Shown piece by piece: positions 7,124 to 7,277 of a stretch of 59,653 nucleotides of DNA. The DNA comes from Candidatus Beckwithbacteria bacterium CG10_big_fil_rev_8_21_14_0_10_34_10 (GTDB lineage Bacteria > Patescibacteriota > Microgenomatia > UBA1400): positions 1 to 59,653 of the forward strand of contig PEZT01000012.1 of NCBI GenBank assembly GCA_002773945.1, written 5' to 3'. The number at the start of each line of letters is the position of its first letter. Within the stretch, counting starts at the first letter, position 1. The notes under the pieces are model-generated. The model was given only the letters and a program-made list of their open reading frames with translations, ran no database searches and was not told where the DNA came from. Position numbers and translations under genes: made by a program.

Positions 7124-7195
7124 AGGCCTGGGGGGGAGTCGAACCCCCGTATAGAAGTTTTGCAGACTTCCGCCTTACCACTTGGCTACCAGGCC
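7124..7195 (-). tRNA. tRNA-Cys(GCA), CCA not encoded
   Basis: Acceptor stem GGCCUGG/CCAGGCC, discriminator U, anticodon arm GAAGU-CUGCAAA-ACUUC, T arm GGGGG-UUCGACU-CCCCC. Confidence 0.97.
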
Positions 7196-7277
7196 ATAAG
7201 CTATTTTATCAAAAAAAGGAAAGAAAGTCTTTAAAAGGTTTTTGATTTTCCCTGTTTCTTATGATATTATTTGGCTG

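Follow-up and report, generated by a model that had tools for sequence, protein, structure and literature searches.

The tRNA-Cys gene of this Candidatus Beckwithbacteria contig raises the question of whether a bacterial tRNA may be transcribed from its own first nucleotide and so need no RNase P. An earlier note on the 59,653-nucleotide stretch of DNA that contains the gene (the window) had proposed this on the basis of the position of an extended -10 element, by analogy with Nanoarchaeum equitans. The genome examined consists of 31 contigs (1.03 Mb in total, 96.7% complete) and has 44 tRNA genes; tRNA-Cys(GCA) is the sole tRNA that ARAGORN finds in the window. The gene and its upstream region comprise the following elements:

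Positions 7123 to 7195, minus strand: tRNA-Cys(GCA) gene (ARAGORN; Rfam RF00005 at 7124-7195, 68 bits, full-length; sequence read).
Positions 7196 to 7202, minus strand: discriminator/start region AGCTTAT, 7 nt (sequence; leaderless-mRNA calibration; E. coli start-site rules, PMC5730371).
Positions 7203 to 7211, minus strand: extended -10 element TGATAAAAT, with TG at 7211-7210, A at 7209 and the hexamer TAAAAT at 7208-7203 (sequence; motif class enriched before tRNAs).
Positions 7226 to 7231, minus strand: weak -35-like hexamer AAGACT, 17 bp upstream of the -10 (sequence read).

All the canonical features of a bacterial tRNA-Cys are present, namely the cloverleaf, the GCA anticodon, the 7-bp acceptor stem and the U73 discriminator (ARAGORN, Rfam and sequence). 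On the minus strand, the acceptor stem GGCCTGG/CCAGGCC is followed by the discriminator U and then by CAA, and a check of the 3' end shows that CCA is not encoded. The stem and the discriminator fix G1 of the tRNA unambiguously at position 7195. TGATAAAAT lies 7 nt (7202-7196) before this G1, exactly at the coordinates and spacing that the earlier note had given. Its TG lies one base upstream of a TAnnnT hexamer, as in extended -10 promoters of the sigma-70 type. The hexamer AAGACT agrees with TTGACA at 3 of 6 positions and was not called by a consensus promoter scan, as expected of a weak -35. Such weak -35 elements are usual where the promoter relies on the TG extension, and this one is probably dispensable given the extended -10.

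The position at which transcription begins can be estimated with an internal ruler, the distance between the strict motif TGNTANAAT and the ATGs that open at least 100 codons. It had been claimed that the spacing seen at tRNA-Cys also precedes many start codons, and this holds: in this genome, 17 ATGs lie 6 nt and 12 lie 7 nt after the strict motif, while a distance of 8 nt is found 3 times and one of 5 nt never. With a looser motif, the counts at 6 and 7 nt rise to 37 and 29. The same peaks are found in two complete relatives, assembled from fetched stretches and belonging to the same order but to different families, with 18 and 13 ATGs at 6 and 7 nt in G036 and 34 and 20 in G005. If these ATGs begin leaderless mRNAs, the polymerase would start at the seventh or eighth nucleotide after the hexamer. 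In E. coli, positions 6, 7, 8 and 9 after the hexamer are used in 8, 55, 29 and 7% of cases, position 7 being modal, and a purine is preferred as the starting base, with a pyrimidine on its 5' side and a G on its 3' side (PMC5730371). Three nucleotides are thus candidates at tRNA-Cys:

A7197, minus strand: position 6 after the hexamer; purine, with T before it.
T7196, minus strand: position 7 after the hexamer; pyrimidine, disfavoured.
G7195 (G1 of the tRNA), minus strand: position 8 after the hexamer; T before it and G after it, favoured.

A rough weighting of these positions, in which the base penalties are our own assumptions, attributes 0.63 to G1. From the letters of this promoter and the ruler, we infer the start site and the 5' chemistry of the tRNA: G1 would be the main and most likely single start of tRNA-Cys, a reading that we hold at even chances.

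The best of the other explanations keeps the same promoter and places the start mainly at A7197 or T7196, so that the transcript would have a leader of 1-2 nt and would require RNase P as the other tRNAs do. It is a serious possibility, although we hold it less probable than a start at G1. A7197 is a purine with a T before it, but E. coli seldom starts at position 6 (8%, PMC5730371) and the genome has no leaderless-type ATG at 5 nt from the motif; T7196, at position 7, is a pyrimidine. Other tRNA genes speak for a short leader. For example, tRNA-Pro(CGG), whose first base is C, has identical spacing and also TAT before its nucleotide 1, and a start of this kind would be required there. In the same way, position 7 after the hexamer is a purine at each of the six G005 tRNAs with 8-nt spacing, for which leaders of 2 nt are predicted. 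Furthermore, U at position -1, as in an RNase P substrate, is enriched (26/44 tRNAs, vs 34% T in the upstream regions). Bacterial RNase P prefers U(-1), and the excess of T over its upstream share fits this preference. A start at A(-2), giving a 2-nt leader, is therefore possible for both tRNA-Cys and tRNA-Pro(CGG), since both have TAT before nucleotide 1. For tRNA-Cys, a leader of 1-2 nt has somewhat less than even chances, below those of a start at G1, and the small remainder goes to other outcomes.

It could also be supposed that the -10 motif is a chance match in an AT-rich region, or serves another purpose, and that tRNA-Cys is transcribed from further upstream. The weakness of the -35 (3/6) would agree with such a chance match, but the distribution of the motif makes it very improbable. 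TGNTANAAT has 373 sites on both strands of the genome (2 x 1.03 Mb), a rate of 1.8e-4 per position, yet it lies at most 60 nt upstream of 20/44 tRNAs, where 0.4-0.8 would be expected (binomial P about 4e-29). The motif class is thus about 25- to 50-fold enriched upstream of tRNAs. It is also present at 18 of the 23 tRNA-Cys loci found in 22 related genomes of the same order. Its placement before transcription units is non-random in all three respects, that is, before the tRNAs of this genome, before the tRNA-Cys genes of relatives and before the ORFs of three genomes, whose starts peak sharply 6-7 nt beyond it. TGNTANAAT is the standard promoter of this lineage. As for a start further upstream, a divergent gene with its own promoter is only about 50 nt away, which leaves no space for another unit.

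The spacing of this promoter was then considered over the whole set of tRNAs. The earlier note had proposed measuring the distance from the -10 to G1 for all tRNAs of the genome and had set variable spacing in advance as a refutation. Variable spacing is what was found: the distances of the 20 motif-bearing tRNAs are 7, 7, 9, 9, 10, 10, 11, 11, 11, 12, 15, 16, 18, 20, 24, 25, 30, 33, 42 and 45 nt. This range of 7 to 45 nt rules out a fixed spacing at the scale of the genome. Most of the close promoters lie at 9-12 nt, and the minimum of 7 nt is shared by tRNA-Cys and tRNA-Pro(CGG). The first base of the latter, C, is a poor initiating base, so spacing alone does not imply a leaderless start. 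The genes of tRNA-Arg(CCU) and tRNA-Pro(CGG) are divergent and 71 nt apart, each with TGTTAAAAT (contig 2, 8045-8264; Pro at 8191).

In the two complete relatives, short spacings are also the rule. Those of G036 are 7, 9 (seven times), 10 (eight times), 11 (three times), 12, 13, 15, 16, 36 and 37 nt, and those of G005 are 6, 8 (six times), 9 (twice), 10 (six times), 11 (three times), 13 and 16-27 nt. Among the tRNAs of the three genomes whose spacing is at most 13 nt, 42/50 are at 8-11 nt and 4/50 at 7 nt or less. Within each genome, the tRNA spacings are about 3 nt downstream of the leaderless-mRNA spacings (one-sided Mann-Whitney P = 0.008, 5e-8 and 7e-5, three tests that are not independent replicates since the genomes are related). 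Promoters at 8-11 nt lead to predicted tRNA leaders that are very short but non-zero, 2-5 nt, in this lineage. Most tRNAs of the three genomes are placed for a predicted leader of 2 nt or more, a hint that selection may maintain some leader, however short.

The leaderless spacing is found at one tRNA per genome, Cys here and Ile-UAU, whose first base is A, in both G036 and G005. In these relatives, the extended -10 of tRNA-Ile(UAU) lies 7 nt (G036, near 777948, minus strand) and 6 nt (G005, near 88813, plus strand) before A1. In the present genome, the first base of tRNA-Ile(UAU) is G, and its only such element is a TATAAT without the extension, 16 nt upstream. The spacing at tRNA-Cys itself is 8-24 nt at the 18 motif-bearing loci of the 23 examined in the 22 related genomes, with 24 nt in one genome of the same family, and none of these 18 loci shows a spacing of 6 or 7 nt. 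The zero-leader placement of tRNA-Cys is thus recent and not conserved, and this lack of conservation gives no evidence of selection for a leaderless tRNA-Cys.

Does the organism need RNase P? The earlier note had suggested a search for rnpB, rnpA and HARP, as well as pointing to an RNase P-associated gene in the window, which is indeed there:

Positions 58121 to 58333, minus strand: YlxR/RnpM-family gene (PF04296, 66.2 bits).

The search finds both subunits of RNase P and rules out an RNase P-free genome. The rnpB gene (contig 25, 1205-1500) encodes a bacterial type A RNase P RNA (RF00010, 109.8 bits vs a gathering score of 100). This RNA is short (296 nt) with an intact core, in which the strands of the conserved P4 are recognized as GAGGAAAGUCC and the ACAGAA..GGCUUA motifs; peripheral segments of 43 and 24 model positions are reduced to 1 and 0 nt. 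The rnpA gene encodes a protein of 116 aa (PF00825, 63-64 bits; 63.8) and belongs to a canonical rpmH-rnpA-yidD-yidC cluster. The HARP-type PIN_5 domain (PF08745) was not found in the genome, which thus gives no sign of a replacement enzyme.

The tRNA genes themselves point the same way. Eight junctions join same-strand tandem tRNAs, and 5 of them have spacers of at most 30 nt. For example, the spacers in the run Val-Arg-Leu-Phe-Gly are 26, 4, 26 and 7 nt, and 4 nt separate the members of an Arg-Ser pair. The maturation of tandem tRNAs separated by 4-30 nt needs a 5' endonuclease. Furthermore, 6/44 tRNAs begin with a pyrimidine (three tRNA-Pro with C, two tRNA-Gln and one tRNA-Asn with T), and tRNAs of this kind need 5' cleavage. 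RNase P has been retained in full, and most of the other tRNAs of the organism depend on it. Over all 44 tRNA genes, the base at -1 is T in 26, A in 16 and never C, and the base at -2 is A in 27. At the other end of the molecules, CCA is encoded in 0/44 tRNA genes and a gene for a CCA-adding enzyme is present, whereas the RNase Z model TIGR02651 has no match at E up to 0.001 in this 96.7% complete genome.

The proposal of a Nanoarchaeum-like system, in which RNase P would be dispensed with and all tRNAs would be leaderless from promoters at a fixed distance, draws only on the 7-nt spacing of tRNA-Cys and tRNA-Pro(CGG) and on the small, reduced genome, and it is refuted at the genome level, with a negligible probability, by the apparently intact rnpB and rnpA, the variable spacing, the eight tandem junctions, the six tRNAs that begin with C or T and need 5' cleavage, and the lack of a HARP PIN_5 in this genome. 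What stands of the earlier claim is confined to the single gene: the promoter is genuine and stands from G1 at one of the two distances at which leaderless mRNAs appear to start in this organism, while the parallel with Nanoarchaeum does not extend beyond tRNA-Cys.

The promoter of tRNA-Cys lies between two other units, one on each side:

Positions 6036 to 6965, minus strand: EamA-family (RibN-like) transporter gene, controlled by an FMN riboswitch (Pfam EamA, 150.4 bits).
Positions 6949 to 7062, minus strand: the FMN riboswitch, 60 AT-rich nt downstream of tRNA-Cys (Rfam RF00050, 86.8 bits).
Positions 7242 to 7270, plus strand: divergent promoter made of TTGATT, 17 nt and TATTAT (7265-7270) with a TG extension (promoter scan; sequence).
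Positions 7278 to 8228, plus strand: PEGA/SH3-domain protein gene (ORF list; Pfam PEGA 52.2 bits, SH3_3 30.8 bits).

A terminator scan finds no terminator-like site in the 60 nt that separate tRNA-Cys from the riboswitch. Only 13 nt separate the two in a same-family genome (L004:1501-1698), where the riboswitch is followed by other genes, for an ABC permease and an NMT1/THI5-like binding protein. The lack of a terminator-like site and the short gap in the same-family genome suggest that the tRNA promoter may also drive the riboswitch message; tRNA-Cys, the FMN riboswitch and the mRNA would then probably form one co-transcript, and the 3' processing of the tRNA would create the 5' end of the riboswitch. 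On the opposite side, the TG-extended TATTAT sits 7 nt before the ATG at 7278. The PEGA/SH3 gene, which faces away from the tRNA promoter and shares its 7-nt spacing, is a likely candidate for a leaderless mRNA.

Taken together, these data suggest the following account. TGATAAAAT would be a working extended -10 promoter of the sigma-70 type for tRNA-Cys, placed at the short extreme of the promoter-to-tRNA distances of the lineage. RNA polymerase would start 7 or 8 nt after the hexamer, where the T at position 7 is disfavoured and G1 at position 8 is favoured. A start at G1 would yield a precursor of tRNA-Cys with a 5' triphosphate, needing only 3' trimming and CCA addition. A minority of the transcripts, or alternatively the majority, would start from A7197 or T7196 and carry a leader of 1-2 nt removed by RNase P. 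The same promoter possibly also drives the downstream FMN-riboswitch/transporter message. The arrangement would thus have arisen sporadically, in this lineage, by the shortening of a leader that was very short to begin with, and would not amount to an RNase P-free mode of life. We have good confidence in this account as a whole, that is, in a real short-distance promoter, a start at G1 or 1-2 nt before it, a retained RNase P and a sporadic shortening of the leader. It makes of tRNA-Cys a sporadic and possibly leaderless tRNA in a lineage whose tRNA leaders are very short. More tentatively, and at somewhat less than even chances, the CPR order to which this genome belongs may make a few natural leaderless tRNAs with a 5' triphosphate (Cys; Ile-UAU) while it keeps RNase P and gives most of its other tRNAs, from promoters at a near-fixed 8-11 nt, leaders of only about 2-5 nt.

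A start at G1 would make tRNA-Cys a natural case, in a bacterium, of a tRNA with a 5' triphosphate and no recourse to RNase P, a situation so far documented only in Nanoarchaeum and in engineered E. coli constructs. The literature searched, whose coverage was incomplete, gave no report of a natural leaderless bacterial tRNA. In it, the expression "leaderless tRNA(s)" was used only with regard to Nanoarchaeum, and neither the literature oriented towards dRNA-seq nor a P. acnes transcriptome provided a bacterial case. Leaderless CPR tRNAs, if real, would suggest an intermediate state on the road of Nanoarchaeum to the loss of RNase P. The picture of RNase P as an essential enzyme is unchanged, since this genome clearly still depends on it. 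More robust and more notable than the single gene is the lineage-wide 8-11 nt spacing of tRNA promoters in three genomes. With such promoters, RNase P (its RNA reduced to 296 nt in this genome) would mostly process leaders of 2-5 nt, and these predicted leaders bear on the leader length that the enzyme and its protein subunit require.

Comparison with known systems places this locus more precisely. In N. equitans (Randau et al. 2008), as related in passages of PMC3491384 and PMC10100707, every tRNA lies at a fixed promoter spacing and starts with a purine, or has a purine at -1; these passages give the RNase P RNA and protein as absent and the tRNAs as working with 5' triphosphates. As in N. 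equitans, the promoter of tRNA-Cys allows transcription from position 1, which is a purine; if G1 is indeed the start, the product would likewise keep a triphosphate at its 5' end and be independent of RNase P. Unlike in N. equitans, this spacing is found at only one or two of the 44 tRNAs and varies among relatives, there are tandem tRNAs, six tRNAs have a pyrimidine as first base and the genome has a complete RNase P. Furthermore, the promoter is a bacterial extended -10 and not an archaeal TATA/BRE. The genome thus lacks every testable defining feature of the Nanoarchaeum system; the arrangement resembles more an extreme form of the short-leader tRNA genes of E. coli.

In E. coli, natural tRNA leaders of 3-8 nt are common (3 nt for trpT, 3-4 for pheU/V, 4 for cysT and 5 for serT), inactivation of RNase P does not prevent the aminoacylation of precursors whose leader is shorter than 8 nt, and the essential role of the enzyme concerns polycistronic tRNA operons (PMC7049720). 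A hisR gene engineered to start at the mature 5' end gives a fully chargeable tRNA (Mohanty, Agrawal and Kushner 2020, PMC7049720). Together with the 5' triphosphate tRNAs of nanoarchaea, this charging makes a tRNA-Cys beginning with pppG1 functionally plausible. Like the short-leader monocistronic tRNAs of E. coli, the tRNAs studied here are encoded by bacterial genes with very close promoters, and, at 2-5 nt, the typical predicted leader of the lineage equals or falls short of the minimum found in E. coli. The zero-leader case of E. coli is engineered, whereas here a natural spacing predicts a leader of 0-2 nt.

A further likeness is found within the genome itself. The promoter of tRNA-Cys and those of the leaderless mRNAs have an identical extended -10 and the same 6-7 nt to the first functional nucleotide. 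They differ in that the product is here a tRNA; the mRNA spacings peak at 6-7 nt and the tRNA spacings at 8-11 nt, which makes tRNA-Cys an outlier among the tRNAs.
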